A DNA stretch of 64,000 nucleotides. Source: a candidate division FCPU426 bacterium. GTDB taxonomy: Bacteria; Oederibacteriota; Muellerivitia; Muellerivitales; Muellerivitaceae. The position numbers and the translations under genes were made by a program. Shown here piece by piece: positions 1-27,559 of the stretch; position 1 is the first letter of the stretch; every line of letters starts with the position of its first letter. The notes below the pieces were generated by a model that worked only from the letters and a program-made list of their open reading frames with translations, made no database searches and was not told where the DNA came from. Location of the stretch: assembly GCA_963796105.1 (NCBI GenBank), contig CAWCKJ010000009.1, forward strand, positions 1 to 64,000, written 5' to 3'.

Positions 1-1857
1 CTGGTGCAGGAAGGCAATGGCCTTGATGATTCCAAGATATTTCTTGTGGTCGCGCCTAGCCCTCAAACTGCTGGCCGGGAAGGTCAGCTTCGGGGCGTAG
101 GGGTTCACCACGGCCAAGGGCTTCAAGAGCCTTTGGGCGTTCTGGTGCTTGGCCGCTATCCGTTCCTGTTCCCGCCGTTTCTTGATGCCTTCCAGGGTTT
201 CCAAGGCCCTCTGGTTCTCAAGTATTCGCTCGGTCATTTCCTTGGACTCGTCAATGGTCAGGGTGATAAACCGGTTTTGGGTTTCGTAGTCCATATCCAC
301 CGCCGTGGTCGTGAGCATCAGGGACACCGGCCCCTTGACCTGGTACTCGGCGGTACGGAGCTTCCCCGTTACCGGGTCTTTCCCGGTCGTGGCAATCGAA
401 AGGGCCTTGGAGCTTTGCAGGTTTCGGATGGAGTACCCCGCTTCCCGCATTCCCCCTTCTTCCTCGATGGCTAAAAGCTTGTGGCACAAACCGCCCTCGG
501 CCTTGTAGAAAAGGGCCTGTCCGGTCAGCCGGGTATATTTCTCGTAGTCCTCCCTGGGCACGAACCGCAAAACCGCGTCTTGCAGGGAAGACTTTCCCGC
601 CGCCGATCTTGATTGAACCAACATGCTCAAGGGGTCGTCCAGCTTCCGGGACACCGCGCACAAATACCCCATGAGCTTGTTGGCTTCCTCCCCCGTCAAC
701 CCGCAAGCCTCGAAATCTTCCAGGATTCGGTCAAGCAACCGGGGGTCTTTCAGGAAGCCCAAGGCCTCCCGCTCCTGCTCCTTGGTCATGGTGAAGGCTG
801 GAACCTTCGGCGCGTCCTCCGGCTCGAACTTTTCCGCCGTCTCGATGAGCTTCCCCAGGTCTTCCTGGATGAGCCCCTCATCCTGCGCGAAACAAACGCC
901 GCAAGCCTTGGCGAACAACACCCGGCCCCGGTGCGAATACAAGTCCACGCTGTCCAGGTAGAACCGTTTGGGCATGTCCGCGCAGAAAGCCTTCACCGTG
1001 ACTTTCAACTTGGTCTTGGACTTCTCCACGCCCTTGACCTCGTAGCGCCTCTCCCCGTACTGGATGGAAAAACCGGATTCGTTCCTCTCAAGGCCCGACG
1101 GTTCCCGCTTCTTCACTTCCTCGGATCGGATGGGCGTCTGGCCGTTGGCTTCCTTCAAGGCCCACTCGATAACGGAAGGTTCCACCGGCAAGGGTGGGAG
1201 CTTCACGGGGTAGGCCGTGACTTCCTCTTCCTTGAGTTGGGCCATGATGTAGGGGCTGGAAAAAGTGACGTAAGCTTCTTTGAGTCCGTGTTGTTGAAAC
1301 AGCCGCAAGTGGTCTTGGGATAACCCCTCGTCGCCCTGCGTCCAAAGCACTTCCTTGAAACCGGCCTGGGAAAGTAAAAGGGCGTCCAGGATGGAGGAAG
1401 TCAAAATCACCGAGCGGCCACGCTTCAAGGCTTGCCAATTCCAAACGCCCGACGCCGCTCCGGGCACCAACACGCCCTCACCGCTTCCGGCCTTGAGGCC
1501 GTACAGTCCCGCGCAGTCGCCCGACTCGGCAAACCACGGGAACACCACGCAACCCGCCAACACTTCCTGGGCCTGTTCGTCCATGAGCCCCAGGGCCTTC
1601 AAGTGTTCGGTCAATTCGGATTCTTCCGGGATCGTGGCAAGCAAGGAACCATTTACCCACCCCGTTTGGAAACCGTCCAGGACGGAAGTTTCCTTCAAGC
1701 CCACCTGGGCCAGGTAGTCCCGGCCCTTGGGGTCTTCCTCAAAGCTCTGGTGGTACAGGGCGGCCACCCGGTTCAAGAGCCTTTGGCGCTGTACCTCCGG
1801 GGCGGTCTTGGCATTGGGCGGGGTGGCCATCTTCATCCTGTTCTGTTTGTAGCTCAA
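1..1857 (-). CDS. Primase-like (degenerate TOPRIM) plus P-loop NTPase protein of Rhs-associated mobile islands; runs off window at its 3' end
   Basis: Hand-translated open frame absent from the ORF track: ...QRLLNRVAALYHQSFEEDPKGRDYL...GCVVFP...SGVWNWQAL...ILTSSILDALLL...GEEANKLMGYLCAVSRKLDDPLSMLVQSRSAAGKSSLQDAVL (Walker A)...LLAIEEE...RARRDHKKYLGIIKAIAFLHQ. Start is TTG 1857 or ATG 1836/1830. Confidence 0.8.
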   Translation of the reverse strand, partial: MSYKQNRMKMATPPNAKTAPEVQRQRLLNRVAALYHQSFEEDPKGRDYLAQVGLKETSVLDGFQTGWVNGSLLATIPEESELTEHLKALGLMDEQAQEVLAGCVVFPWFAESGDCAGLYGLKAGSGEGVLVPGAASGVWNWQALKRGRSVILTSSILDALLLSQAGFKEVLWTQGDEGLSQDHLRLFQQHGLKEAYVTFSSPYIMAQLKEEEVTAYPVKLPPLPVEPSVIEWALKEANGQTPIRSEEVKKREPSGLERNESGFSIQYGERRYEVKGVEKSKTKLKVTVKAFCADMPKRFYLDSVDLYSHRGRVLFAKACGVCFAQDEGLIQEDLGKLIETAEKFEPEDAPKVPAFTMTKEQEREALGFLKDPRLLDRILEDFEACGLTGEEANKLMGYLCAVSRKLDDPLSMLVQSRSAAGKSSLQDAVLRFVPREDYEKYTRLTGQALFYKAEGGLCHKLLAIEEEGGMREAGYSIRNLQSSKALSIATTGKDPVTGKLRTAEYQVKGPVSLMLTTTAVDMDYETQNRFITLTIDESKEMTERILENQRALETLEGIKKRREQERIAAKHQNAQRLLKPLAVVNPYAPKLTFPASSLRARRDHKKYLGIIKAIAFLHQ

Positions 1858-1974
1858 ATCCGCCCCCCAAAAAACTTGTCAAGGGCCTCGTGGCCCGAAT
1901 CCCCTTTTTTCTTCTGTTCAAGAGTAATACATTAGGTGCATCATTTTGTCAATCACCCAATGAAAAGGAGCTTC

Positions 1975-2388
1975 ATGACCTACAATTCCCCTCAAAACCA
2001 CTCCCAGGAGCAACCCTTGCCCCGCGTCAAAGTGCCCGCTCTCCCAGGTTCCGAATCCTTCGGCAAACGCCTTGCCCGCCTGCGGAAAGCCGCCGGGTAT
2101 TCCCAATACTCGCTCGCCGACGCCGTGGGAACATCCCAAAGAATGATCGCCCATTACGAAATCCACGACGGCAACCCGCCCTTGCACGCCTTCTACAAGC
2201 TCTGCAAAGCCCTCAACGTCACCGCCGACCAGTTGTTGGGTTTGGAAAAGGTCAAAGAAGAAAAGAAGGACAACCGCCTGCGGCGGCGTATCGCCCAAAT
2301 CGAGAAGCTACCGGAACCCATCCGCAAAACCGTAGCCCAATACCTCGACACCACCTTGGCCGCCTGGAACGCCAAAGGAAAGCCGTGA
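1975..2388 (+). CDS. XRE-family HTH transcriptional regulator
   Basis: FGKRLARLRKAAGYSQYSLADAVGTSQRMIAHYE...ALNVTADQLLG; AAGGAG SD before ATG 1975; divergent from the primase-like gene. Confidence 0.9.
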   Translation: MTYNSPQNHSQEQPLPRVKVPALPGSESFGKRLARLRKAAGYSQYSLADAVGTSQRMIAHYEIHDGNPPLHAFYKLCKALNVTADQLLGLEKVKEEKKDNRLRRRIAQIEKLPEPIRKTVAQYLDTTLAAWNAKGKP

Positions 2389-2726
2389 AGTTCTTCATCC
2401 CCCATTGCCCGCCCGAAATGGCCGAGGAAGTTTACGAGACCATACGCCCCAACTTCCCCAAACCGCCCACGGCCCGGCGCATCTACCGGCTGGAATACAG
2501 CCGCAACGGGGGAAGTTACGCGGCCCAGGTGGGGGAACCATCAGACGAGTTCGGGGGGGAATTTGTCCTCGCCATCTTTGAATACGGGGACAAAAAGGAC
2601 GGCCTCTACGTGCCCGCTTGCGTGGCCGGGGAAATCCACAAGGGCCAGCCGCGCCTGGCACCTGAGCCCAAGCATCACTTCATCCCAGCGGAAACAGTCA
2701 CCCGTATCTTGGACTTTGAAGGCTAG
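2385..2726 (+). CDS. Hypothetical protein (113 aa) translationally coupled to the XRE gene
   Basis: GTGA start/stop overlap at 2385-2388; protein-like composition (VKFFIPHCPPEMAEEVYE...); 3' part of track ORF 1890..2726. Confidence 0.6.
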   Translation: MKFFIPHCPPEMAEEVYETIRPNFPKPPTARRIYRLEYSRNGGSYAAQVGEPSDEFGGEFVLAIFEYGDKKDGLYVPACVAGEIHKGQPRLAPEPKHHFIPAETVTRILDFEG

Positions 2727-2755
2727 TGGGATTTAACTTTCTTCTCGGACATTAG

Positions 2756-3313
2756 TTAGTCGGTCACCCATACGGTTTTTAATTTTTCGCCCTTCCAGTA
2801 ATAAACCCTTTCGCCGCCCTTGTCGAAGGGGTTAAAAGAAAAACCGGCGCTTGTCATGTCCACCCATTTACCATTTCCCACGTCTTGGATTTTCCCCTGG
2901 GGTTCATACAACAAATACATATCAAGTATGGGAGGGGCAAATACTCTAAAGTCTTGGATCAATTGGACTTCCGGTTTGGCCGTATTCAAACCCAGGACTA
3001 GCACGAAAAACTTGATGCCCGATTCCGGTTTTTTGGAGTCCACCAACAACGCCGCGCAATCAGTGACCGAAGGACACCGAAAGTTTCCAATCACCAATCC
3101 CGGACTTTTCTTGGGATGATTCTTTTTAAAGTATTCTCGGATGTCACCATCCACATTGCTTAATTTCATCACGGTATAACCAGGATATTCGTGGGCCAAC
3201 AAGTCAGTTGCCGTCTTTACAAGCTCGGGGTTATAAGTCAGTGAAACTTCCTGTGAAAAGCCGACGGAAACACAAACAAAAATAAAACCAATAAACCAAA
3301 AAAACCTTTTCAT
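2756..3313 (-). CDS. Exported hypothetical protein, candidate orphan immunity protein
   Basis: Signal peptide MKRFFWFIGFIFVCVSVGFS; GAGGTG SD; AT-rich; downstream of the Rhs gene on the same strand. Confidence 0.7.
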   Translation of the reverse strand: MKRFFWFIGFIFVCVSVGFSQEVSLTYNPELVKTATDLLAHEYPGYTVMKLSNVDGDIREYFKKNHPKKSPGLVIGNFRCPSVTDCAALLVDSKKPESGIKFFVLVLGLNTAKPEVQLIQDFRVFAPPILDMYLLYEPQGKIQDVGNGKWVDMTSAGFSFNPFDKGGERVYYWKGEKLKTVWVTD

Positions 3314-3437
3314 TCTTCACCTCTTCATTACCAAATAAATGCGGACAACATATTGAGGGCTTGGAAGGTCGAGAAGGAAAAGGCTGAACAAAGGAAAAAT
3401 TACCATTTGTTTGCGCTGTTTGATTCTTCAATAGTCG

Positions 3438-3773
3438 TTATTTTTTTATTTTGAACCGTTTTGCAAGAGCGTCAAATGAATTAAGAATTGCGACTGCGGC
3501 TATTGCCACCAAAATCATCCAATAACCTTGATCCAAAAAACCCGCACCAAAAGAATAAGGAATTATTCGAAAGTAAAACAAAAACCAAATCGTTCCCATT
3601 ACCAAGGCCACCAAGGCCAGGAATAAAATCCAAGCTATAAAATAATTTTTGTAGTCTGATTTCTTCGGCCTCAAGAATAATAAGGCACCAACAAAAACCA
3701 CAATTAGCATTACATACAATTCCTGTAACTCACGAGGTGATAAAGGAGTATTACTCAAATTTAACCATTTCAC
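3438..3773 (-). CDS. Small 3-TM membrane protein, candidate cognate Rhs immunity protein
   Basis: Three hydrophobic segments, GGAGG SD, very AT-rich, first gene after the Rhs stop codon. Confidence 0.7.
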   Translation of the reverse strand: MKWLNLSNTPLSPRELQELYVMLIVVFVGALLFLRPKKSDYKNYFIAWILFLALVALVMGTIWFLFYFRIIPYSFGAGFLDQGYWMILVAIAAVAILNSFDALAKRFKIKK

Positions 3774-3812
3774 TAAATTCCTCCAAAAAAGTTAACATCT
3801 CCTAATTTTCAT

Positions 3813-6221
3813 TTATTTTTTACCATGGCAACCACTGTTGGGTGGATTCCCTGTTTGGGGAGTCGGAGCAGTTTGATTATCTTTTATATCTTGTTGAATG
3901 CCTAAAGCTCCTTTCGCAGCACCCGCTAACCCTACAATATTTTTTACTTTTTGCGCATTGGATAAGCCAAGCACATACAAGGTCAAATCTCCCGAATCCA
4001 CAACAAGTGGAATTTCCGGAAGAACAAAGGCACAAGCAAGCCCAACGCAATCGCAAAAAAGTTTTACATCTCCCGGAGTGACAGGGCGATTCCAGTTCGG
4101 GGGTAATTTATTTTTATAAGAACCCCAAAGCCCAAATGGATCAACCCATTGGAATGGGTTATTGTTTACCATTTCATATAAATTATTCCCAGCAAATTCA
4201 GCCAACGGGTCACGGTTCAACCATCTCCCCATATTCGCGTCATAAGCCCTGTACAAAGTCAGCTCGAGGTTGGCCGCCCTCTCCATGTACATCCCGGTAT
4301 ACCCAAAGTCCGTCGTCACCGCCTGACTAAAGACAGCCTGCCTGCCAAAGGCATCGTAATCGTAGCTCGCCTGGACTGTTCCACTACTAGTAGTCATTTC
4401 CCTCACGCTTCCCAGGTGGTCAAGCGTGTAATAATAATTCGTCCCGTTGATTTGCTCCCCATAGTCAAAGAACTGTTTCGTGACCGTGTGCCCTGTGCTG
4501 TCCCTCTCCTGGCATAGCGACGCCCCAATCCAGACAAATGTCTTGCTGGTTAGCACCGTTGAACCGTGGGATTCAACAATTCCCACACGACGGCCATATC
4601 CGTCATAAGAAAAAGTGAGGGTGTCGGGGACAGTGGGGGGAGTGGGGTTGAGGCTTGTCATTCCTACGAGTCTGTTAACAGCGTCCCAGGTATAGTTATA
4701 CGCTTGGGATGCCAATTCATTTCCATTCGCGTCATACTGGTACGGCACCGTATTCAAAACATGGTTTTTCACGATATTCACCGTACCATCACTGGCCACC
4801 TCTGTTACCGTGAGGGGTGTGCTAGTGCCCGTAATGGGCTGGATGGTAGTTGAATATTTGTTATTCGCATCTTCAGTCACCGCCTGGCCATTCACTGTCA
4901 CTGCCGCCGAGCGGCTTGTGGCACCGGTAACACTGATGGGTTTGTCCGTTTCGTTGGTGAGTTGGTTTAGGTTGTTGGTGGCAAAGGTGTGGTCATAAGT
5001 AGGGGTGTGTTCTATCATTCGGTTCCCCGCCGCATCATAACCATAAGTCACCGACTGGTTGGCCGTTAGGCCGTCAAATCCGCTCGTACCAGCGGTCATT
5101 GTCGCAGCTTGGAGTTCGCTATCTGGGTCATAACCCATGGCGTAGGTCTTGGCGTCTGCCGGGTTGTTATCCAATTGCTGTTGCCAGCTTTTGATATCGC
5201 CTTCCGGATTGTAAGTGTAACTGAACTTGGAAAGTGTTTGTCCGCTGGTACCGCCCGCACCGATGTTGGTAATATCCTTCAGGCTTCCAGAAGCTCCCAT
5301 AGGGTTGGATGGATTGAAATAATCCAGGTTCGTCTGCTGGCCATTTGGATAGTTAACTTGGGTAAGCCTGGCCGATTGGGGATCGTAGTTATAGGTGAAA
5401 GCCCCAGAAGGCGACAGAGGATTGGTAACTGTCGCTAATTCCGCGTTTGTATAACCATAAGTCTCGGCCACGCCGTCAATGGACCTATTAATCACACGTC
5501 CATCGGCGTCATAGACATAAGAAATCGCGGCAGAGGCCGCTCCCACAGGCTGTTGAATACTTTCCAGCCTTCCCCCACCCACCTGCCCAAAGGGGTAATA
5601 CTGGTATGTGGAGGTTCCAGTACTGTCCGTCATGTTCGTCAAACGACCCAATTGTGGGTCGTTGTAGGCCAAAGAAACGCTTGGGGTGGCCGCCTTCACG
5701 TTGAAATAATTTACGTTCAGTACCTTGTCATCCGTATCATACTTGTACTGGGTCACTTGCTGGTTGGGGTCCGTCACTTGGAACAACCGCTCGCCAGCCG
5801 AATCATACTGGTAAATGTATTGGCTCCCGTCTTGGTAGGTCTTGCTGATGGCACGTCCTTCCAGATCCCTGTTCCAGGAGGTCTTGTTTCCTTTCGGGTC
5901 GGTTAGGCTTGCCAATGCCCCACAGGCGCACCAGCCATAACCGGTGGATTGCTGTTTGGGGTCGGTCACAGCTGTCAACCTTTGGACTGCGTCGTATTGG
6001 TAGCCGGTCGTGCGGTTCTGCCTGTCCGTGAAGGAGACCAAGTCCAGCTTGGCGTAGGAATAGGTCTCATGCGTCAAATCCGGGAAATCGATTCTCGTTA
6101 CACGATCCCCGTTGTCGTAATGATAAACAAGGGTTCCATTGGCGGCGTCTGACCTGGTATGCGTCCTTCCACAATTGTCATAAGTGTAGGTTACTCCCGC
6201 CCCTGGCTGGGGTGGTACCAC
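3813..6221 (-). CDS. Rhs/YD-repeat core protein with C-terminal toxin tip; N-terminally truncated (orphan or pseudogene-like)
   Basis: Many YD repeats; core signature YYYTLDHLGSVR...YDAFG...FGYTG...RAYD...GRWLNRDP...NPFQWVDPFGL. The frame continues upstream (SYNYDSNGFLTS) with no SD/start, then stops near 6267. Confidence 0.9.
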   Translation of the reverse strand: MVPPQPGAGVTYTYDNCGRTHTRSDAANGTLVYHYDNGDRVTRIDFPDLTHETYSYAKLDLVSFTDRQNRTTGYQYDAVQRLTAVTDPKQQSTGYGWCACGALASLTDPKGNKTSWNRDLEGRAISKTYQDGSQYIYQYDSAGERLFQVTDPNQQVTQYKYDTDDKVLNVNYFNVKAATPSVSLAYNDPQLGRLTNMTDSTGTSTYQYYPFGQVGGGRLESIQQPVGAASAAISYVYDADGRVINRSIDGVAETYGYTNAELATVTNPLSPSGAFTYNYDPQSARLTQVNYPNGQQTNLDYFNPSNPMGASGSLKDITNIGAGGTSGQTLSKFSYTYNPEGDIKSWQQQLDNNPADAKTYAMGYDPDSELQAATMTAGTSGFDGLTANQSVTYGYDAAGNRMIEHTPTYDHTFATNNLNQLTNETDKPISVTGATSRSAAVTVNGQAVTEDANNKYSTTIQPITGTSTPLTVTEVASDGTVNIVKNHVLNTVPYQYDANGNELASQAYNYTWDAVNRLVGMTSLNPTPPTVPDTLTFSYDGYGRRVGIVESHGSTVLTSKTFVWIGASLCQERDSTGHTVTKQFFDYGEQINGTNYYYTLDHLGSVREMTTSSGTVQASYDYDAFGRQAVFSQAVTTDFGYTGMYMERAANLELTLYRAYDANMGRWLNRDPLAEFAGNNLYEMVNNNPFQWVDPFGLWGSYKNKLPPNWNRPVTPGDVKLFCDCVGLACAFVLPEIPLVVDSGDLTLYVLGLSNAQKVKNIVGLAGAAKGALGIQQDIKDNQTAPTPQTGNPPNSGCHGKK

Positions 6222-6364
6222 GGAAGTTAAAAATCCGTTCGAGTCATAGTTGTAAGAACAAAGGGGTCAGGACAACATTTATCACTTTGGATTCATCCCA
6301 AAACCCTATGCCAAAAACAGGCTCTTATTATGCCACCACATCAACAATTAGAAATGAGGAATTA

Positions 6365-6713
6365 GCCCCCCTACGCTATCTACCTTCGCATAAGCTTCGG
6401 TAGACAGGCAGCTTCTGGGGATAGAGAGTGAGGTGTTAGGAATAGACGGCAAAACAATGAAAACCCAGAAACATTAATTTCGCAGAGAGTTTGGAACTCC
6501 AGGATTTGTGCAATTTTATAGAAATGGATTATTTATCCGCCTTCGCCAGAACACCCCGGCTTTAGCCGGGGATGAATGGCTGAAAGAAGGGCTACGGTGG
6601 ATTCCGCATACGTCATGTCGGCGGATACTCGCCGAAGCCGCCTGTCCTCTGAAGCCTCGCGCAAGCGGATGGCGGAGGTGAGTCGATATAGGTACTACGA
6701 GCTTGCCCGTGGG
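6365..6713. repeat. Cluster of nested REP-like and IS200/IS605-like palindromes
   Basis: CTACCTTCGCATAAGCTTCGGTAG inside CCCCCCTACGCT..AGCTTCTGGGG; CCCCGGCTTTAGCCGGGG (6554-6571) inside ATCCGCCTTCGCC..GGCTACGGTGGAT; degenerate CCCACGGGCAAGCTCGTAGTAC on the - strand at 6692-6713. Confidence 0.6.
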
Positions 6714-6898
6714 GCTCCATGAAATTCTGGCCGGTTGGCGCCTGGAACGTCCTTGTACTCGGCCTTCAGCTTTTTCATTCTCGCTGCGTACATTTTCCGG
6801 AGAATCCCCACCTGTTCCCCATTTAATCCCAGTGCCTTGTCAAAACATCAATTTTAAATTCCGAATCACAACGGTCCTAAATAGTCTTTTGCCACAGT

Positions 6899-6976
6899 TG
6901 TACCGATCATCCATAAAAACATTGAGAGATCGGCACGATACCAGCCCCCATAACATCTTTATGGTAGGCTGGCATG
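6899..6976. repeat. Twin-hairpin module B, copy 1
   Basis: TGTACCGAT..CCATAAA..ATCGGCAC-GATACCAG..TTTATGG..CTGGCATG; homologous to 12484-12561 (inverted) and 26546-26626. Confidence 0.8.
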
Positions 6977-7056
6977 CATGGGATACATGGGATAAACCGA
7001 TTTACCTCAGAGACTCGGAGACCCTGCTACCACAAAGCAAAAGGCGAATATCTTTA

Positions 7057-7166
7057 GATCGTGACAAGAGCATAGCTCTTGCGCCGTTGGCGATATGGCC
7101 AAGCCCAAGTGCCTCCGGAAAAATAGTTTTTCCCGGAAGCCGTCGGCTGAGCCATATAACACGATC
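7057..7166 (+). repeat. 110-bp multi-stem module C, copy 1
   Basis: GATCGTG...CACGATC ends with internal hairpins; homologous to 12631-12740 and 13685-13794. Confidence 0.9.
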
Positions 7167-7420
7167 AATAAACAAGCCCTCAATTAAAAATTAGAATTCG
7201 ACGGCCTTTCCCCGGCCAATTTAAGGAGCAGGGGTGTTTTCGCTTTTTGGATCTCATCCCGCCAGTAAAGAAAGTCTTTCATGGGTTATATTTTAACCCA
7301 AGGTGGTTTCCCCCGTTCTCTGACGAATTATATGGAAAAGATTAAAATAAAGGGATTCCGAGCCCGCTTTGATTGCCGTATCTCTTCCTAGGGCATAAAA
7401 TCTTTTCTAAAGACTTAACT

Positions 7421-7470
7421 GGGGTTGCTTCGTCGCAAGCGCCCCGATTGGGGTGGCTTCTCGCAATGAC
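7421..7470. repeat. REP/RPE-like palindrome (TTGCTTCGTCGC...CTCGCAATGAC type)
   Basis: GTTGCTTCGTCGCAAGCGCCCCGATTGGGGTGGCTTCTCGCAATGAC, 17 bp upstream of kdpD. Confidence 0.55.
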
Positions 7471-7487
7471 ACTATTGGTAATTTCTA

Positions 7488-10181
7488 ATGATTGATAAAA
7501 GACCCGATCCAGACGCCCTATTGGAACGCATGCAGGCCCAGGAAGCGGTCTCCCGCAAGGGAAAGCTCAAGATATTCTTCGGGGCCTCGCCCGGCGTGGG
7601 AAAAACCTATGCCATGCTGGAGGCCGCCCGCGCCAAAAAGGCTGAGGGATTGGACGTGGTGGTGGGGATCGTCGAGACCCACGGCCGAGGGGAAACCGCC
7701 GCCCTTATGGATGGGATGGAACTGCTCCCAGCGCGCGATGTGGAATACCGGGGAACCAGCTTCAAGGAATTCGACATTGACGGGGCGCTTAAGCGCCGCC
7801 CGGGGCTCCTGCTGGTGGACGAGCTGGCCCACACCAACGCGGAAGGGTCGCGGCATCCCAAACGCTGGCAGGACGTCCAGGAACTCCTGGATTCCGGCGT
7901 CAACGTCTATAGCACCCTGAACGTCCAGCACCTGGAAAGCCTCAACGATATCGTGGCCCAGATCACGGGCATCGTCGTTCGCGAGACGCTCCCCGACAAG
8001 GTCCTTTCCCTGGCCGACGAGGTGGAGGTGATCGACCTTCCCCCGGACGATCTCCTGAAACGCCTGGAGGAGGGGAAAGTTTACCGCCCCGAGCAGGCCC
8101 AAAAGGCGGGGCAAAATTTCTTCCGCAAGGGCAACCTGACCGCGCTGAGGGAGCTGGCCCTTCGCACCACCGCGGACCGGGTGAACGACCAGGTCCTGGT
8201 TTACCGCAGGGACAAATCCATCACCAAGACCTGGGCCACGGTCGAGAGGCTCCTGGTTTGCGTAAGTTCCAGCACCTCCTCCGCCAGCCTGGTGCGCTCA
8301 GCCCACCGAATGGCGAAAAGCCTCAAGGCGGACTGGATCGCCATTTACGTGGAGACACCGGCCCAGGAGCGCCTTCCGGCGAACGTGCGGGCCAGGGCCA
8401 TACAGCACCTGAAGCTGGCCGAGCAGTTGGGAGCCGAAACCGCGACCCTCAGCGGGACAAACTTTTCCGAGGAAGTCATCGATTACGCCAGGGAACGCAA
8501 CGTCACCAAGATCTTCATCGGCAAGCCCACCGGTTACTCCTGGAAAAGCCTCTTTGCCCCCTCCCCCGTGGACCAGCTCCTGCGAAAAAGCGGGGATATC
8601 GACGTCTATGCCACACGGGGCGAGGAAGAGGATCTGAAGCCCCTGGGACGCAGGACCCTCCCCAAAGCCCCGAAATGGTCCGGCTACGCTTGGGCCCTCC
8701 TGGCCGTGGCGGCTTCCACGGGAGTCTCCTTCCTTCTCTTCAACCACGTGGACCTGGCAAACCTGATCATGGTCTATCTCCTGGGCATCCTGGCGCTTTC
8801 CTCTCGCCAGGGAATCGGCCCCTCCACCCTGGCGTCGTTCTTAAGCGTCATCGCCTTCGACTACTTTTTCGTGACCCCTCGTTTTTCCTTCGCCGTATCT
8901 GACACCCAATACGTCTTCATGTTCCTCGTGATGCTCCTGGTGGGCCTTTCCATCAGCAGCCTGACGGTGAGGGTGCGCCAACAAGCCAGGCTCTCGCGCT
9001 TGAGGGAGAGGCGCACCGCCGCCCTCTACGCTCTTTCCCGGGAGCTGGCCTCCACAAGGGGCACGGCGGAACTACTGGATATCGCGGTCAAACATATTTC
9101 AGAGGTTTTCGACTCCTCCGTAGTGGCCTTCCTGCCGGATTCGGAGGGACGCTTGAAGATCCAATGCGGGGCGGTGGAGGATTTCAACCTGACCGCGAAG
9201 GAAATGGGGGTGGCCCACTGGGCCTTCGACCTGGGGCAGATGGCGGGCAGGGGAACCGACACCCTTCCCTCCACCGAGGCCCTTTACCTTCCCCTCCTGG
9301 CCACCGGCGCTCCCGTGGGCGCTCTGGGGGTTAAAACCAAGGACCCGGAAAGATTGTTCATTCCCGAACAATTGCACCTGCTGGAAGCCTTCGCCCACCA
9401 GACAGCACTCGCTGTGGCCGGGGACAAGCTGGAGGACAAGCAGAGACAGACCCAAATGCAAGTGGAGACGGAGAAACTCCGCAGTTCCCTCTTGAGTTCG
9501 GTTTCCCACGACCTTCGAACGCCCCTGGCCGCCATCGCAGGTTCCATCTCGAGTCTCCTGGAAAACGGGCAGGCCCTGGACGCCTCCATCCGGAAGGACC
9601 TTTTGGAGAACGTCTATGGCGAGACGGAGCGCCTGGAACGCCTCGTCACGAACCTGCTGGATATGACCCGCTTGGAATCCGGCACCGTGAAACCCAACCT
9701 GGAGAACCAGCACCCAGCCGAGGTGATCGGCACCGCCATCTCCCGCCTGGAAAAGAAACTCAAGGGAAGGGACCTCCACACCCGGATCGCCCCGGACTTG
9801 CCCCTCATCCCCATGGACGGGCTGTTAATCGAGCAGGTGGTGGTGAACCTTTTAGAGAACGCCCTGAAATACACCCCCGAAGGGTCCCCCATCACCATCT
9901 CGGCCGATTTGCGCGGCAAAGAGTTGATCGTCCAGGTGGCCGACAAGGGCCCGGGGCTCCAGGACGGAGACCCGGCCAGGCTGTTCGACAAGTTTTATCA
10001 GGGCCCGCAAAAGGAGAAAAAAGGCGGAGCGGGGCTGGGCCTTTCCATCTGCAAGGGTATCGTGGAGATCCACGGCGGCACAATTGAGGCACTCGACAAT
10101 CCCGGGGGCGGCGCCTTGTTCCGTTTTACCATTCCCCTCCGCGGCGAGGTCGTTAAAATCCAGGAGGAAACCCATGGCTGA
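7488..10181 (+). CDS. kdpD: Sensor histidine kinase KdpD
   Basis: KGKLKIFFGASPGVGKTYAML, LVDELAHTN, KRWQDV, Usp domain, 4 TM, GAF, SVSHDLRTPL H-box, GAGLGLSIC. Confidence 0.97.
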   Translation: MIDKRPDPDALLERMQAQEAVSRKGKLKIFFGASPGVGKTYAMLEAARAKKAEGLDVVVGIVETHGRGETAALMDGMELLPARDVEYRGTSFKEFDIDGALKRRPGLLLVDELAHTNAEGSRHPKRWQDVQELLDSGVNVYSTLNVQHLESLNDIVAQITGIVVRETLPDKVLSLADEVEVIDLPPDDLLKRLEEGKVYRPEQAQKAGQNFFRKGNLTALRELALRTTADRVNDQVLVYRRDKSITKTWATVERLLVCVSSSTSSASLVRSAHRMAKSLKADWIAIYVETPAQERLPANVRARAIQHLKLAEQLGAETATLSGTNFSEEVIDYARERNVTKIFIGKPTGYSWKSLFAPSPVDQLLRKSGDIDVYATRGEEEDLKPLGRRTLPKAPKWSGYAWALLAVAASTGVSFLLFNHVDLANLIMVYLLGILALSSRQGIGPSTLASFLSVIAFDYFFVTPRFSFAVSDTQYVFMFLVMLLVGLSISSLTVRVRQQARLSRLRERRTAALYALSRELASTRGTAELLDIAVKHISEVFDSSVVAFLPDSEGRLKIQCGAVEDFNLTAKEMGVAHWAFDLGQMAGRGTDTLPSTEALYLPLLATGAPVGALGVKTKDPERLFIPEQLHLLEAFAHQTALAVAGDKLEDKQRQTQMQVETEKLRSSLLSSVSHDLRTPLAAIAGSISSLLENGQALDASIRKDLLENVYGETERLERLVTNLLDMTRLESGTVKPNLENQHPAEVIGTAISRLEKKLKGRDLHTRIAPDLPLIPMDGLLIEQVVVNLLENALKYTPEGSPITISADLRGKELIVQVADKGPGLQDGDPARLFDKFYQGPQKEKKGGAGLGLSICKGIVEIHGGTIEALDNPGGGALFRFTIPLRGEVVKIQEETHG

Positions 10182-10875
10182 CCAAGGCGTGATCCTGCTT
10201 ATCGAGGACGAGCTTCCCATCCGGCGGTTCCTGCGCCCCACACTTCAAAGCCACTCCTTCAAGGTGGTGGAGGCCCAAACGGGCGGGGAGGGCCTGGCCC
10301 TGGCCTCGTCGCACAATCCGGATATCGTGCTTTTGGACCTGGGGCTTCCCGACATGGACGGCCTGGAGGTAGTGAAGCGCCTGAGGGAATGGACCACGGT
10401 GCCCATCGTCATCATCACGGCCAGGGGCAAGGAGAAGGACAAGATCGCGGGCCTCGACGCCGGCGCGGACGACTACCTGACCAAGCCCTTTGACGTGGGG
10501 GAGTTGATGGCGCGCATCCGCGTGGCCCTGCGGCATTCCACGCTCCTGAAAAGCGGGGGGAAACAGGCCCCCCTCTTTGAGACGCCCGATTTCAAGGTGG
10601 ACCTTTCCGCCAGGGTAGTGACCGTCCGGGGCAAGGAAGTCCACCTGACGCCCAACGAGTACGACCTGCTGGCCTTTCTTATCCGCCATTCGGGCAAGGT
10701 GGTGACCCAGAAACAGATTCTCCAGGAGGTTTGGGGTCCCGCCAGCGGGGACCAGGTGCAGTATTTGCGGATTTACGTCTATCAGCTTCGCCATAAAATC
10801 GAGGCGGACCCCGACCGGCCCCGATACCTTCTCACCGAGTCAGGGGTGGGCTACCGCCTGAAAACGGAAGGATAA
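10174..10875 (+). CDS. kdpE: Response regulator KdpE
   Basis: LLIEDE, LLDLGLPDMDG, GADDYLTKPF, winged helix YLRIYVYQLRHKIE..TESGVGYR; AGGAGG SD; overlaps the kdpD stop. Confidence 0.95.
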   Translation: MADQGVILLIEDELPIRRFLRPTLQSHSFKVVEAQTGGEGLALASSHNPDIVLLDLGLPDMDGLEVVKRLREWTTVPIVIITARGKEKDKIAGLDAGADDYLTKPFDVGELMARIRVALRHSTLLKSGGKQAPLFETPDFKVDLSARVVTVRGKEVHLTPNEYDLLAFLIRHSGKVVTQKQILQEVWGPASGDQVQYLRIYVYQLRHKIEADPDRPRYLLTESGVGYRLKTEG

Positions 10876-10915
10876 GAAGGGCGCCCAGTTGCGCGCAGTT
10901 CACACTATCAGCGAA

Positions 10916-11551
10916 TCATCGGTTTTGCTCAAGCCTGCTCACGTTTAAACTGTACAACCCGTCTTTATCAAATTTGCCGATGATCAGAATGGCGTCGTCG
11001 TATTCCACGCTTTGATTCGTTTCCTTATTGAAAATCTTCCCTTTTCCAATCAGGGACAATTTAACGAATTGGGACATTTCTGTTTTATTCGGCGTGGCAA
11101 AGGTTTCAGCCGAGTGAATTCCGCCCTTAAAAAGATCATCAAAACTTTTCCGGCTCATCCCCAGGCGGATACCCTGCACCAAATCCCCGTCCAAGGATTT
11201 CGCGAGCCTGAAAGTTTTCCCCTTTTTCATTTTGAAATGATCCGATTTATGAACCGTGAAACCCAGGAGGGTTTCTTGATCCCCTCCCTTTTCCCCCGAC
11301 CAGAAATCAACAACGACGGAGCCATCCTGGGTGACGAAATACCGGGAGTCCGGATTCTCCTCGCCCTCACCGGTCGAAGCGATAGGATCCGTTCCCAATG
11401 ATTTCTCAACCTCGGACAAAGTATTTTTCCCCAACTGGAACCCTAAAAATTTCGTATAGGCCAGGGGATCAAACGCAAAGGCCGGTTGGACGAATAACAG
11501 GCCGCACGCGGCAACAAAAAGACCGGCTAAAAACTGATTTCCAACTTTCAT
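10916..11551 (-). CDS. Exported hypothetical protein
   Basis: GGAGG SD, then signal peptide MKVGNQFLAGLFVAACGLLFVQPAFA. Confidence 0.7.
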   Translation of the reverse strand: MKVGNQFLAGLFVAACGLLFVQPAFAFDPLAYTKFLGFQLGKNTLSEVEKSLGTDPIASTGEGEENPDSRYFVTQDGSVVVDFWSGEKGGDQETLLGFTVHKSDHFKMKKGKTFRLAKSLDGDLVQGIRLGMSRKSFDDLFKGGIHSAETFATPNKTEMSQFVKLSLIGKGKIFNKETNQSVEYDDAILIIGKFDKDGLYSLNVSRLEQNR

Positions 11552-11663
11552 ACCCGCCTCCATTAAAACGACAGTTATTTTAAATCTACCTAAAACCAGT
11601 CGGTGACAGGTAACAGCGCTGAAGCTCAAATTAAAATTTGATCAGGTTGGGCATTTTGCTCAA

Positions 11664-12050
11664 TCACCAGATCACTTTCAGCCCAGGGAACGCACGGATG
11701 CGTTTGTCCTTGCTGAGAATTGGGCATCCATACTCTTTGGCTGTGGCTACAAGAATACGATCCACTGGATCTCCGTGAAATTCACCTTCCAACCGGGTGC
11801 TCTTCACGGCGATTGCGGGCGTCAAGGGTGTCAATTGGATTTTCGGAAGTTTTAACGCTTGATCCACCCATACCTCAACATCCCGATCAAGTTCCAAACG
11901 TCTTTTCGCCACCAACATACCTACTTCCCAACAGCTGATGGCATTAACGTAGATGCCGTCCGCGGCCCGAATGGCTTTTGAAGCCATGGGGGAGAGTTGT
12001 GGAGAGCCCGCCGCCCACCAAATCCAAGCGTGGGTGTCCAGGAGGATCAT
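11664..12050 (-). CDS. vapC: PIN-domain VapC-family toxin
   Basis: MILLDTHAWIWW, AISCWEV, HGDPVDRILVATA, LSKD. Confidence 0.92.
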   Translation of the reverse strand: MILLDTHAWIWWAAGSPQLSPMASKAIRAADGIYVNAISCWEVGMLVAKRRLELDRDVEVWVDQALKLPKIQLTPLTPAIAVKSTRLEGEFHGDPVDRILVATAKEYGCPILSKDKRIRAFPGLKVIW

Positions 12051-12274
12051 TGATCGGCTTCCCAAGTGTCATCAAGCGGGGAGACAATATCCTTTTCGCT
12101 CAAGACACTACCATGAAGGAATGTTCCTTTTTTACCATTCTCCTTCAAAACGGGAGCGATTTTAGCCACTGGGATTCCATGTTTGGTGACCACGATAGTC
12201 TCATGGGCGCTGCTCACTTCATCTAATAACGACAGGCATTTGGCCTTAAAAACACCGGCGGCGATGGTTTTCAT
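12047..12274 (-). CDS. Phd/YefM-family antitoxin
   Basis: MKTIAAGVFKAKCLSLLDEV..TIVVTKHGIPVAKIAP; ATGA overlap with the toxin start. Confidence 0.92.
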   Translation of the reverse strand: MKTIAAGVFKAKCLSLLDEVSSAHETIVVTKHGIPVAKIAPVLKENGKKGTFLHGSVLSEKDIVSPLDDTWEADQ

Positions 12275-12287
12275 AAGCTCTCCTTTG

Positions 12288-12306
12288 TGACCACTTATCA
12301 TGGTCA
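12288..12306. promoter_or_regulatory. Probable TA autorepression operator
   Basis: TGACCA-N7-TGGTCA inverted repeat just upstream of the antitoxin SD. Confidence 0.55.
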
Positions 12307-12402
12307 TATTCCCACGGGAGAAAGGAGAAGTCAAGCCAACCTAACTGGGGGAAATCTTTGAAAAACTTGGGTATTTAGGAATCTTTCTGACGGTCACACC
12401 TA

Positions 12403-12884
12403 TCCAAAATAGACTTTAGTGGATTCGACTCGTTTTACTCGCTCACCATTCCCAAGAGATGCATGGGATAAACCGATTCACCTCATGCCAACCCTCCATA
12501 AAACTAATAGGGGGCTGGTATCGTACCAATCTCCACATATGCTTAATGGAAGATTGGCACAGGGACTCAGAGACTCAGCTACTGCTTTTGCCACGGATGC
12601 ATGGGATACATGGGATTTAAAGAAACTTCAGATCGTGACAAGAGCGCGGCTCTTGCGCCGTTGGCGATATGGCCCTGTCCGCGGACCGTGGAAAAATTAA
12701 TTTTTCCATCGGCCGCCGGCATGTGCCATAGAACACGATCGATAATCAAGCCTTCATTTAAAACTTAAAATTAAAAATATAAAATTCATTCTGTAATGAA
12801 TGCCTTGCCATCCCCTGCATCCCAGCTAAAAATCTGATTTATTTATTTTATTTCTTGGTTTTTATTTAATTTGGACGGCAAATG
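12403..12884. repeat. Composite structured intergenic element 1 (head, module B, module C, tail)
   Basis: 80-bp head matches 13499-13578 at 77/80; tail 12819-12884 matches 13859-13925; contains B (12484-12561) and C (12631-12740). Confidence 0.85.
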
Positions 12885-12899
12885 TCTGACGGTCCTAAA

Positions 12900-13433
12900 T
12901 CAGCGCAGGGACTCGTAATAAGACTTGAAGAGCTGAAAGCCCTCTTCCCACTCGCCCAAATTGGATTGGAGGTTGATATGCCCCTTCTCCCCCACGTCCA
13001 CCAGCTTGGACCCCCACTGCTCCGCCAAATGGCCGGAAAACTCGTAAGTCGCGTAAGGATCATTGCGGCTGGCCACAATCACCGAGGGAAAGGGGAACTT
13101 GGACTGGATGAAAGGCTTGAACCCCGCCGCTTCCTTGGGAAAACTTTCCGACTGAATATCGGGGGGAGCCGCCAAAAAAGCCCCCTTGATCCCAGGGTCC
13201 CTGAAGGACTGCGTCCATTGGGAAACGAGAAGACAGCCCAGGCTGTGGGCCATGAGGACCTTGGGGCCGGGGTTGAGTTTCATGAACATTCCCAGGTCGT
13301 CGACCCAGTTCCCGGCTTTGGGCTTGTCCCAATCCTGGTGCTCCACCCAGACGCCGCCCAGGCGCTGGAACCAAAAGTTCTGCCAATGGCCGGGCCCCGA
13401 ATTATTAATCCCGGCTAAATAGATGATTTTCAA
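12900..13433 (-). CDS. RBBP9/YdeN-family alpha/beta hydrolase
   Basis: GINNSGPGHWQ, AHSLGC nucleophile elbow, ASRNDPY, GHIN. Confidence 0.92.
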   Translation of the reverse strand: MKIIYLAGINNSGPGHWQNFWFQRLGGVWVEHQDWDKPKAGNWVDDLGMFMKLNPGPKVLMAHSLGCLLVSQWTQSFRDPGIKGAFLAAPPDIQSESFPKEAAGFKPFIQSKFPFPSVIVASRNDPYATYEFSGHLAEQWGSKLVDVGEKGHINLQSNLGEWEEGFQLFKSYYESLR

Positions 13434-13498
13434 CTGGACCGCTCCCGAAAATATTTTGAAGCGTTATTAGCCCCTAATTTAATATAAAACTACATCTT

Positions 13499-13925
13499 TC
13501 CAAATTAGACTCTAGTGGATTCGACTCGTTTTACTCGCTCACCATTCCCAAGAGATGCATGGGATAAACCAATTCACCACAGGGACTCAGGGACTCAGCT
13601 ACAGCAACAACTTCTCACCACGGGTTCCCACGGGAACCGCAGTGCTAACGCAACACAGTGGAAGATTTAATGGACTATTGTTTAGATCGTGTTCTATGGC
13701 ACAGCCGACGGCCTCCGGGAAAATCTATTTTTCCGAGGCCTTTGGATGCGCCATAAAGCTCGCAGGGCGCAAGAGCAAGGCTCTTGTCACGATCAAAGCT
13801 TTAACTGAGTCTCTGTGCTGTGCGAAGCACAACTGTGGTGAATAGTATTTTTTCCTGAATCCCAGCTAAAAATCCGATTTTATTTATCTTTGTTTCTTTG
13901 TTTTTATTTAATTTGGACAGCAATG
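13499..13925. repeat. Composite structured intergenic element 2 (head, inverted module C, tail)
   Basis: Same head and tail as 12403-12884 in the same orientation; module C at 13685-13794 is reverse-complemented. Confidence 0.85.
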
Positions 13926-13948
13926 GCAACTAATAATTATTTTCCGGG

Positions 13949-15142
13949 TTATTTCTTCTTCATCGCGGCCAGGATTTTGAAGTTGCTGTCGATGGTTTCC
14001 CTGAAGAGCTTGCAGTTCCCCTCGATATCGGGGCTTTGCCGCACCAGGTCCCCCCCCACCAGGAAGATGACCTCCCCGCCGTAGAATTCCACCAGCTCCG
14101 GCACCCTTTTCAGGTTCATTCCCCCGCCGGGCATGGGGAAGATGGGCTTTAATTTCCCCATGGGCATGGCGGCCCCCATCGTGATCCTGCGGCATTCCTC
14201 CGTGCTGAAGCCGAACCTTCCCCCGCTGTGCGGGAAAATGCTGGCGTCGGCCCCGGCCATGCGCATGAGCTGTCCGAAAAGCGCAAAATGGGAGATGCCG
14301 TTGTCGGGGCTGGTGACGAAGCTTCCCAGGAAGGCCGGATGGGCGAGGATCGGCAGGTCCACCGAGTCGTCGTCGGCCAACTCCCTCATGGAATCCATGC
14401 CCGTCAAGCCTGGGCAGATTAAAAGGGCGCCGGCTCCCTTGTCCTTTGCGAACCTCGCCCTTCTCTCAAGCTCCCCCGCGGGGGCCGTGACATTGGGCGC
14501 GTAGAGCGCGGGTTTTCCTGCTTTCTTGGCCCCGACCCGGACCGCCTCGACGCAACGCTCGACCCGTTCGGAAAAAGCCGCGAAAGACTGGTTGGCCAGC
14601 CCGTGGTCGTCCTTCACGATGTCGATCCCACCGGCCGCGAAATGTCCCGCCATTTCGGCCAATTCGGTTGCTGATAGCCCCATAGGCTTGAGGGCCGAAG
14701 CCAGGAGCGGCCTCGCGGGCGCGCCCAATAATTTCCTCAGGCCTTCCCGGCCGAACCGGGGGCCCTTGAAGCGGTTCCAGAAATTCCGGCAGTCCTTGAT
14801 AAGATCAAGCCTGAAACCCTTCTTCAGGCTGATGTTGCCGTAAAGGACGTTCAGGACCTGGGTCAGCTCGAAACCCGTGTCGTCGTTCAGGAAGGTGATG
14901 AGGGCCCTGGAGGCTTCCCCTGGCGCGCTGGGGTCAGGCCCGAACTCGGCGATCTGGCCGATCACATGATCCTTGATGAATCCCTCCGGAACCAGGTCCG
15001 CGGGAAACTCCACGGTTTGCTCCAGGCAGAGGTCGTTGGCTTTGGTGAGGGCTTCCTGACGGTCGCCGGTGAGGCGGTACCAGGCCCCGAACCGGTCGCA
15101 GTTGGAGCAGAATTCATGGCTACAGGGTTTGGGGTCAGCCAT
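13949..15142 (-). CDS. RuBisCO-like protein (form IV, R. rubrum-type, KDDH motif)
   Basis: EQTVEFP, NVLYGNISL, GPRFG, SALKPMGL, IVKDDHGLANQ, AHPAF, FPHSGGRFGFS, PGGGM. Confidence 0.92.
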   Translation of the reverse strand: MADPKPCSHEFCSNCDRFGAWYRLTGDRQEALTKANDLCLEQTVEFPADLVPEGFIKDHVIGQIAEFGPDPSAPGEASRALITFLNDDTGFELTQVLNVLYGNISLKKGFRLDLIKDCRNFWNRFKGPRFGREGLRKLLGAPARPLLASALKPMGLSATELAEMAGHFAAGGIDIVKDDHGLANQSFAAFSERVERCVEAVRVGAKKAGKPALYAPNVTAPAGELERRARFAKDKGAGALLICPGLTGMDSMRELADDDSVDLPILAHPAFLGSFVTSPDNGISHFALFGQLMRMAGADASIFPHSGGRFGFSTEECRRITMGAAMPMGKLKPIFPMPGGGMNLKRVPELVEFYGGEVIFLVGGDLVRQSPDIEGNCKLFRETIDSNFKILAAMKKK

Positions 15143-26338: not shown

Positions 26339-26372
26339 AAAACAAGAAGCCCGGGGAGAAACCTCCCCGGGC
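26339..26372 (-). terminator. Terminator-like hairpin
   Basis: GCCCGGGGAG-GTTT-CTCCCCGGGC-TTCTTGTTTT on the - strand. Confidence 0.6.
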
Positions 26373-26545
26373 CCTATTCCCCTTTTCCAAGAAAAACCCA
26401 TCGCTGGATTTTTCCGGATAATCAAGGGACGGCCCTCCGCACCGCAGCGTAGGGCAGGGCTTCGGTTCACCACTTGGCCGGGGCATTATCCCCGGCCACC
26501 CATTGGCCACCGGCCAAGGGCAGTTAAATTCACGAGTACACGGCT

Positions 26546-26626
26546 TGTACCGATTCACCATAAAGCAGTTAAGTAAATCGGCACTATACCGAACTTTCAT
26601 TAAAGAATTTATTGAGGTTCGGCATG
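26546..26626. repeat. Twin-hairpin module B, copy 3
   Basis: TGTACCGAT..CCATAAA..ATCGGCAC-TATACCGAAC..TTTATTG..GTTCGGCATG; abuts palindrome CCCCGGCTAAAAGCCGGGG (26628-26646). Confidence 0.75.
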
Positions 26627-26661
26627 TCCCCGGCTAAAAGCCGGGGCCTGAAATCAGCCGG

Positions 26662-27396
26662 TCAATTCGACTCGGCCAGCCCCATTTGCGTGAGCTTCGG
26701 GAAAAGGATGTTGTTTTCCAGGTGAATGTGCTGGTGCACATCCGCCTCCAGCTCTCGGATGCCCTCGTATAAACCCTTAAAGGACATGCAGGCCCCTTCC
26801 GGCGGGGTCAAGCCGTTGGTCAGGCGATGAATTTCCAAAAATCCCTCACCCGTCACGCCGTGCTCCCACATGAGAACCTTCAGGGGTTGGCTCAGGACCG
26901 GGCCCTGGGGTACCGGTTGGGCTATATTTCCCGCCTCCCGTTCCTCTTCCAATCGTCTCAAGAAGGCGAATACCACCTGCTCTTCCTTGGCCATGTGACC
27001 GTCCAATTCCCGGCCCATTTCTCCCACCTTGTCCCTCAATTCCAACAGTTCCGGATGCTTCTCGCCGTGGACTTTCACCACCTTTTCCGCCAAACCCAAA
27101 AGCCTGGAGGTCTGGGTCCTGGTATAGACGTGATGTTTTTCCACGATGTAATCGAGGAATTCCACCAGGGGTCGATTCGTCCAATCCATAAATACCGTAT
27201 CCGGGTTCGACCTGGCCTGGATTTTTCCCAGTAAATCCAAGGTCTCCTTGACGGGGACTCCCGCCAACTCACAGGCTTCTTTTAAACTCCGGCGTCCCCC
27301 GCAGCAGTAATCCAGTTTCAATTCTTCCATGAACGGGATCGCTCCCTTTACCTCCACGGCGATTTTCCCGACCGGCATGATTTCGGTGATTTCCAT
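26662..27396 (-). CDS. ric: Iron-sulfur cluster repair di-iron protein (YtfE/ScdA)
   Basis: LDYCCGG, IVEKHH, VHG, HMAKEE, EH, HIHLENNILFP. Confidence 0.95.
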   Translation of the reverse strand: MEITEIMPVGKIAVEVKGAIPFMEELKLDYCCGGRRSLKEACELAGVPVKETLDLLGKIQARSNPDTVFMDWTNRPLVEFLDYIVEKHHVYTRTQTSRLLGLAEKVVKVHGEKHPELLELRDKVGEMGRELDGHMAKEEQVVFAFLRRLEEEREAGNIAQPVPQGPVLSQPLKVLMWEHGVTGEGFLEIHRLTNGLTPPEGACMSFKGLYEGIRELEADVHQHIHLENNILFPKLTQMGLAESN

Positions 27397-27445
27397 AATT
27401 GCCCCCCTGGCGGTTTGATTACAGGTTGATGTTGTTTCAATGGAA

Positions 27446-27489: not shown

Positions 27490-27559
27490 GATCATCCTTT
27501 AGTTTTGGGAGGTATTTAAGGCTTTTAAGCTAAAAAGGCGGATTTTGGATGAAGTGAAT

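Follow-up and report, generated by a model that had tools for sequence, protein, structure and literature searches.

Patchwork elements around a serine hydrolase gene in a candidate division FCPU426 bacterium: probable mosaic miniature transposons

The closest described counterparts of elements 1 and 2, two composite repeats that bracket a single serine hydrolase gene in a candidate division FCPU426 bacterium, are (i) miniature transposable elements with inverted repeats (MITEs) such as MITEAba12 of Acinetobacter, which goes with the insertion sequence (IS) ISAba12, (ii) the repetitive extragenic palindromes (REPs) of proteobacteria, with the bacterial interspersed mosaic elements (BIMEs) and paired hairpins (REPINs) that they form, and (iii) the attC arrays of integrons. 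Both elements lie in a stretch of 64,000 nucleotides (assembly GCA_963796105.1, contig CAWCKJ010000009.1, positions 1 to 64,000 of the forward strand), referred to below as the window.

MITEAba12, in the portions of PMC6382973 drawn on here, is small and non-coding, with AT-rich ends and terminal inverted repeats. It makes a 9-bp duplication, the same length as that made by a co-resident IS with related ends, and it has many intergenic copies of which only part still have the duplication. The elements described here are alike in these respects, the IS in their case being a putative partner. They differ in being longer and far more heterogeneous (209–510 bp, against 111–114 bp for MITEAba12), in having an interior that is a mosaic of other repeat families, and in being known from sequence footprints rather than from observed movement.

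The REP-type repeats, in the parts of PMC3733652 used here, are mosaics of short palindromic modules that lie between genes in both orientations and into which other mobile elements insert. The same can be said of the repeats of this locus, and module B of element 1, a mirrored hairpin pair, is built like a REPIN. The present elements nevertheless differ from REPs in their arms, which are transposon ends and come with target duplications, a feature absent from REPs; the B hairpins show no GTAG tag at their heads; and no REP-associated tyrosine transposase (RAYT) flanked by repeats was found among 16 Y1_Tnp matches in the same genome. The attC arrays of integrons likewise consist of imperfect palindromes, placed in one orientation around single genes, but here there is no integrase over the cut-off and no array beside an integrase, and elements with transposon ends and duplications occupy ∼240 unrelated intergenic sites. 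An integron-like reading was rejected on the enzyme itself, since TIGR02249 gave 0 matches over its 265-bit cut-off and the best score, 67.2 bits, was at the level of control genomes.

Elements 1 and 2 probably belong to a family of miniature transposons that is spread through the genome, lacks a transposase of its own and has patchwork interiors; its likely mover is an IS4-type transposase encoded elsewhere in the genome, and a gene-cassette system is probably not present. The initial annotation of this DNA had proposed a modular, recombinogenic repeat system that captures or shuffles genes. Much of that description stands: the system is modular, is made of repeats, and is or was mobile. The novel, cassette-like capture of genes finds no support, given the MITE ends and the 9-bp duplications.

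Arms, termini and target duplications

The outer parts of the two elements, with the footprint of element 1, are as follows.

12386 to 12394, no strand: left copy of the element 1 target duplication, TCTGACGGT, identical at 9/9 positions to 12885–12893
12395 to 12884, plus strand: element 1, a probable MITE copy of 490 bp running from left to right end, with ends that fit the family end models and a perfect 9-bp duplication
12395 to 12419, plus strand: left terminal inverted repeat of element 1, starting CACACCTATCCAAAAT; 42 terminal copies in the genome; 15/20 positions as in the left end of an IS4-family element
12420 to 12457, plus strand: 38-nt head insert, private to elements 1 and 2 (coverage 2)
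12810 to 12884, plus strand: right arm of element 1, made up of the remnant of an inverted 9-mer, AT-rich sequence and a right terminal repeat that closes with TTTGGACGGCAAATG
12885 to 12893, no strand: right copy of the element 1 target duplication, 9 bp, equal to the left copy
13491 to 13925, plus strand: element 2, a probable MITE copy of 435 bp in the same orientation as element 1, without a target duplication

The shared arms reported in the initial annotation are borne out: the heads agree at 77 of 80 positions (12403–12482 and 13499–13578) and the direct tails at 66 of 77 alignment columns (12810–12884 and 13850–13925). A repeat search widens the head match to 93% over 90 nt (12396–12485 and 13492–13581), and within the tails two sub-blocks, of 27 nt and 35 nt, are 93% and 91% identical. 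The bounds first given, 12403–12884 and 13499–13925, have to be extended on the left, as the true ends are 12395–12884 and 13491–13925. The head is the family left end carrying the 38-nt insert, and in the tail the right end takes a shortened form that a few other copies also have. Full copies of the insert occur in elements 1 and 2 only; a 24-nt match lies at C4:908563 (contig and position, as below; blastn-short) and a partial match of 37 positions at C2:152874 (nhmmer). Having a private head and a tail variant in common, elements 1 and 2 would appear to be siblings derived from one master copy. As had been noticed, each element lies close to a stop codon: the stop codons of the upstream genes are separated from the right ends by 15 nt for element 1 (12884 to 12900) and by 23 nt for element 2 (13925 to 13949).

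Neither arms nor interiors are confined to this locus. A blastn search of their own genome with the two elements and element 3, a third member in the window, gives 448 matches spread over at least 10 of the 16 contigs, and sequence coverage along the elements splits them into sharply bordered modules. These were counted by iterated nhmmer on the same genome, with double-strand duplicate hits removed; module D, an AT-rich spacer, was excluded because its model drifted from 6 to 89 hits.

Module B: 204 copies
Blocks of two 9-mers (RCATGGGAT): 113 copies
Module X: 74 copies
Module Y: 43 copies
Module C: 39 copies
Tails (right ends): 27 copies
Heads of the type present in the window: 2 full, 1 partial

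The modules are combined in 73 different architectures among 237 loci. The left-end model has 131 hits, 42 of which include the terminal part, so that with 42 canonical left ends and 27 right ends the arms are no local peculiarity and the 38-nt insert alone is private; an origin by local duplication only, which the initial annotation had considered, is ruled out by these genome-wide copies of arms and modules.

The termini are sharply defined. All 27 right ends close with GGAC..ATG-like termini, beyond which the sequences diverge, and every aligned tail ends in TTTAATTTGGACGGC(A/T)ATG before doing so. On the other side, alignment of the flanks of module C reveals a recurrent left end, CACACCTGTCCAAAATAGACTTTAGCCACAGATG, followed by 9-mers. 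Full copies run from the left end CACACCTGTCCAAAAT to the inverted right end ATTTGGACGGCAATG and have imperfect terminal inverted repeats of the form 5'-CA...GTCCAAA / TTTGGAC...TG-3'. Both ends consist of CA, five bases and GTCCAAA.T; a direct comparison of CACACCTGTCCAAAAT (left end) with CATTGCCGTCCAAATT (inverted right end) gives agreement at 11 of 16 positions, the 9-nt core GTCCAAA.T included. The 9-mer blocks behind the ends are mirrored (RCATGGGAT on the left, ATCCCCTGM on the right) and face each other in most members, so the foldback pairing proposed for element 1 holds in general.

Left and right ends could be paired in 16 copies of 209–510 bp, or 18 when elements 1 and 2 are added. 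Their 9-bp flanks were compared with mismatched-flank controls.

9/9 identical: 7/18 paired copies, 0/306 controls
8/9 identical: 5/18 paired copies, 3/306 controls
7/9 identical: 1/18 paired copies, 16/306 controls
6/9 identical: 2/18 paired copies, 47/306 controls
5/9 identical: 3/18 paired copies, 127/306 controls
2 to 4 of 9 identical: the remaining 113/306 controls

Flanks identical at 8 or 9 positions are thus found in 12 of the 18 paired copies and in 3 of the 306 controls. Filled and empty sites were compared at three loci. For the copy at C4:1346951-1347463 the same-genus genome has an empty site, its flanks being 73 nt apart there and 667 nt apart here; the other two loci have one collinear flank each.

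The family is intergenic and apparently non-coding. Called genes contain 0 of the 39 copies of C, 1 of the 113 9-mer blocks, 2 of the 27 right ends and 12 of the 204 copies of B, on gene calls that make 77% of the genome coding and come from a conservative caller that misses some genes. Five open reading frames (four inside elements, one starting from the terminal ATG of element 1) gave no Pfam family in 5/5 cases, and neither did the frame at 6703–7194.

MITE copies are mutually 80–94% alike. The same-genus genome has 26 MITE matches, up to 94% identical over the full length, and 14 of 24 same-family genomes have some match to a 212-nt element. Within these 14 genomes a 31-nt subterminal block (TTAGCCACAGATGCATGGGATACATGGGAT) is 97–100% identical across several genera, often in facing pairs ∼100 nt apart (for example G024:C41:28602-38349, and in genomes G013, G021, G006 and G010); outside this block the MITE is recognisable in the same genus only.

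A candidate mobiliser of the IS4 family

The window holds no cognate enzyme, as the initial annotation had stated. Elsewhere in the genome, looking for inverted pairs of the degenerate end motif led to a 1412-bp element with nine full copies of at least 99.6% identity, one interrupted copy and one fragment. Its 389-residue transposase contains DUF4372 and DDE_Tnp_1 (PF01609, E 3.4e-23) and scores 269 bits against the NCBIfam model of the IS4 family (NF033592, cut-off 115), and perfect 9-bp duplications flank the copies in 10/10 cases. The family typically has 5'-CA ends and duplications of ∼10 bp in the portion of De Palmenaer et al. 2008 (PMC2266710) used here, and the candidate, with DDE_Tnp_1, 5'-CA ends and 9-bp duplications, is close to this type. 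The full copies lie at C4:453969-455380 and eight more places on C3, C4, C6 and C10, at 99.6–100% identity, the mark of a very recent burst; a 1.3-kb insert divides the interrupted copy (C3:4186-6901).

A MITE is expected to match its parent IS in the terminal inverted repeats and in the length of the duplication, according to the part of PMC6382973 that deals with this. The left ends of MITE and IS (CACTGCTGTCCTAGATAAAC and CACACCTGTCCAAAATAGAC) are identical at 15 of 20 positions, whereas the ends of MITEAba12 fit perfectly in that account, and an internal repeat of the end motif in the IS equals the right end of element 2 over 15/15 bases. Judged from these matches and the common duplication length, the transposase of the 1412-bp element, or of an older relative, is the putative mobiliser of the MITE. 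A second IS4-type element (C4:1260942-1262262) was set aside, its ends being less MITE-like (10/20).

Several points weigh against this picture of a family moved by an IS4-type transposase. (i) The flanks of element 2 agree at 5 of 9 positions, as in controls, and contain no target duplication; short junction patterns used to look for a reciprocal junction gave nothing convincing. (ii) MITE and IS have just the TGTCC-type terminal motif in common and nothing else, so their pairing rests on ∼16–20 nt and the duplication length. (iii) The same-genus genome has the MITE, but no copy of the IS was found there, the nearest IS4-type transposase being 36–37% identical; that assembly is in 60 contigs and 93% complete, so an identical multi-copy IS, of a kind often lost in such an assembly, may simply be missing. 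(iv) IS copies are near-identical whereas MITE copies are 80–94% alike, which makes the IS burst younger than most MITE insertions. (v) Nothing here demonstrates movement today: public reads, taken as small shares (0.09 and 0.07) of two DNA runs, gave just contigs of 151–230 nt; two of these span junctions, the left one of element 1 and the right one of element 2, and no contig is informative about empty sites or inverted modules.

The perfect duplication around element 1 shows a simple insertion, on its own, into a spacer of ∼67 nt that already joined the hydrolase and antitoxin genes. Element 2, lacking a duplication and lying at a synteny edge (see below), is likely to be a recombination scar between two family members.

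Interior modules and the fold of module C

The interiors of the two elements differ because the family is a mosaic. Their parts, and the third member, are these.

12484 to 12561, plus strand: module B, REPIN-like, with twin hairpins in 78 nt, nested inside element 1; fold z −1.9 and −3.6 on the two strands
12585 to 12619, plus strand: second, internal copy of the subterminal block, with GCCACGG and two RCATGGGAT 9-mers, corresponding to positions 19–53 of the left-end model
12630 to 12740, plus strand: module C, forward; closing stem and three hairpins, −35.8 kcal/mol, z −6.4
13606 to 13680, plus strand: module X, which holds the GGTTCCCACGGGAACC hairpin; its 30-nt core is found in 74 copies
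13685 to 13794, minus strand: module C, inverted, from repeat and profile matches
13795 to 13850, plus strand: module Y, found in 43 copies
6867 to 7198 (end approximate), plus strand: element 3, a truncated member with a canonical left end, B inverted at 6900–6976, 9-mers, C at 7056–7166 and the right end missing

The repeat search agrees with the first description of these interiors: C at 12630–12740 is direct to 7056–7166 and inverted relative to 13685–13794, and B of element 1 recurs flipped at 6900–6976. Element 3 had been taken for an armless mosaic at 6899–7200; it starts at 6867 with a canonical left end (terminal hit at 6868–6897), has B at its usual hot spot and lacks the right end alone.

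Module B behaves as a nested unit. In element 1 it splits a sequence that is uninterrupted in element 2 (GATTCACC / ACAGGGACTCAG), and in ∼20 other copies it is found at a single fixed place in the left end, between CCACAGATG and CATGGGAT. It is found singly too, at 68 solo loci, and in tandem arrays. Seven to eight B-type units stand head to tail, repeating every 75–77 nt, in arrays at C2:112807-113345 and C2:158386-158988, and one such array is ∼260 nt upstream of a Y1-transposase gene, a 318-residue open frame (C2:159178-159504). A solitary B occupies positions 26547–26626 of the window, within a 1.2-kb stretch (∼26350–27562) that corresponds to ∼80 nt in the collinear same-genus contig. 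Two copies of C are split by B inside the long hairpin (C4:458097-458285 and C2:103303-103552), and nesting is thus at least three levels deep.

Element 1 looks like a chimera of two members, as it has the internal copy of the subterminal block and is, from 12585 on, 88% identical over 242 nt to the copy at C4:730555-730795. The X-C-Y frame of element 2 recurs at C2:371267 and C2:103303. A further module has the grammar of the subterminal block in other words, CACCACAG followed by two GGGACTCAG 9-mers; it is present at 12458–12483 with 12562–12584 and at 13554–13605, recurs beyond C, inverted, in other copies, and may represent the end of a sister family of elements. Across the family, B is nested at recurrent points, C is carried in either orientation according to subfamily, and X and Y replace one another. 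The shuffling could have come about through nested insertion, inversion between the closing-stem repeats of C and exchange between copies.

Module C is a 112-nt four-way-junction module. As DNA it is predicted to fold into a closing stem round three hairpins, at −35.8 and −36.9 kcal/mol depending on the strand (z −6.4 and −6.9). From 34 aligned copies, out of 35 of full length, RNAalifold predicts 34 pairs; in nine of these, changes on both sides keep the pair, and 96.9% of the alignment cells are paired. Double-change cells number 72, against 22.6 ± 5.0 in shuffled alignments, of which 0/500 reach 72, and slid partners give 2–10. As the copies are kin, independent compensatory events are fewer than the cells counted; three pair types at one position still point to repeated change. 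The fold of C is, as far as aligned copies can tell, preserved by compensatory changes. What sets the subfamilies apart is the closing stem, which is GATCGTG or GATCATG, together with the spacers on either side and the way C is oriented to the MITE ends. The start of C is nearly equidistant from the left 9-mer block in both orientations, which suggests old inversions between closing-stem repeats with later amplification, and no switching locus by locus.

Among the 41 genomes searched, C is seen in its own genome only; a lone 29-nt match elsewhere (E 2.8e-4) is taken as chance. A further reading, possible though doubtful, makes C a second-order, hairpin-dependent parasite that rides and flips in a DDE-type MITE and has undergone a burst in one species, its fold policed by compensatory change, with the MITEs acting as recombination joints that place accessory islets.

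The retained fold could also be expected if these repeats were intergenic signals selected by the host, such as terminators, RNA-stabilising hairpins or protein-binding sites, and were repetitive because of function and not mobility. The strong identity of the 31-nt subterminal block in several genera and the position of 16 of the 18 paired copies between co-directional genes fit this explanation as well. It is nevertheless unlikely, given that the target duplications show transposition and that the restriction of C to one of 41 genomes fits a young selfish burst. The orientation of copies to their flanking genes is mixed, with the right end toward the upstream gene in 11 and the reverse in 5. 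Rfam gives no gathering-score match over the whole window, and none at E up to 1 on 6800–14000. Consensus scans found promoter-like sites (4, against 2.2 ± 1.5 in shuffles) and terminator-like sites (2, against 2.7 ± 2.2) at about the level of the shuffles. Parts of the element may have been co-opted to a secondary host role, though the observations do not require one.

It is unlikely that the repeats are of REP/BIME type, moved as single strands by a Y1 (RAYT-type) transposase, with no DDE enzyme involved. Module B, with its mirrored hairpins, tandem arrays and 68 solo loci, is what such a mechanism could produce, and of the 16 Y1_Tnp matches in the genome 14 fall in open frames of ∼307–320 residues. 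However, Y1 transposition makes no target duplication, whereas the outer element has 9-bp duplications and terminal inverted repeats. Modules lie within 2.5 kb of 5 of the 16 Y1 genes and are lacking within that distance of the other 11; no Y1 gene has a regular flanking pair, of the kind that the initial annotation had proposed to look for. A Y1 mechanism may hold for the nested B, not for the arms.

The bracketed gene and its neighbourhood

Pfam agrees with the gene identities first proposed, which place the two elements among minus-strand genes.

11664 to 12334, minus strand: Phd/YefM antitoxin and PIN toxin pair (antitoxin 12047–12334, toxin 11664–12065; Pfam PhdYeFM and PIN)
12900 to 13433, minus strand: YdeN-type serine hydrolase gene (Pfam PF06821 Ser_hydrolase, E 6.7e-49), between the two elements
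13949 to 15142, minus strand: RuBisCO-like protein (RLP) gene (RuBisCO_large, 1.6e-29), opening the stretch of collinearity with the same-genus genome

The RLP gene is accompanied by split transketolase genes on the minus strand. From 13972 to ∼38900 the window is collinear with one same-genus contig, so that element 2 stands at the edge of a conserved block of at least 25 kb; left of 13972 there is no collinearity with the same-genus genome. The toxin–antitoxin pair and the hydrolase gene are on the variable side of this edge and have no same-genus counterpart in a DNA query. Downstream of the RLP gene the same-genus genome has different genes and no element; the match to those genes in the present genome, 74% identical, lies at C11:95.7-96.6 kb with no MITE beside it. 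The kdpDE block and a 237-residue open reading frame are on other same-genus contigs, among other neighbours. Synteny at MITE loci was compared for element 2 and three other loci, too few for a statistical test.

At the far left, positions 1–7500 have no same-genus DNA match at E 1e-30; this part contains the gene for an 802-residue RHS-repeat protein (3813–6221, minus strand), and the window begins at a contig end. A 178-residue open frame (12882–13418, plus strand) begins exactly at the ATG that ends element 1, runs through all of the hydrolase gene in antisense and matches no Pfam family; it is taken as a shadow frame.

The arrangement of two direct MITEs around one gene raises the possibility of a composite, cassette-like mobile unit that carries the hydrolase gene. 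In agreement with the expectation that the flanked gene would vary among relatives, the hydrolase gene is patchy: a search recovers it from 3 of 24 same-family genomes but not from the same-genus one. The stretch of 2.4 kb between 11594 and 13971 has no counterpart in the same-genus genome, elements 1 and 2 share their private head insert and tail variant, and gene-flanking pairs of MITEs are described, as around integrons in Acinetobacter, in the part of PMC6382973 concerned with them. A composite is nonetheless highly improbable. The outer flanks of the pair, 12386–12394 and 13926–13934, are unlike (TCTGACGGT and GCAACTAAT), and so leave no footprint of a composite transposon. The perfect duplication of element 1 shows the insertion of a single element after the hydrolase gene already adjoined the antitoxin gene. 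Of the five homologous hydrolase loci in three other genomes, 0/5 have a module or the same neighbours.

In sum, this uncultured soil lineage has a MITE family with IS4-type ends, in which REPIN-like and other repeats are nested, and the architecture of the locus recalls that of BIMEs. Fixed arms with shuffled interiors are explained by transposon ends together with nested and exchanged repeat modules, which removes a false lead towards a new gene-capture system. The analysis also provides a catalogue of the intergenic repeat grammar of this lineage (MITE ends, 9-mer blocks, a twin-hairpin unit and a species-specific structured module) and names a testable pair of MITE and transposase. A further look is merited only by module C, structured and species-specific, and by the copies at synteny edges; the latter hint, without showing it, that such repeats help to rearrange accessory genes.

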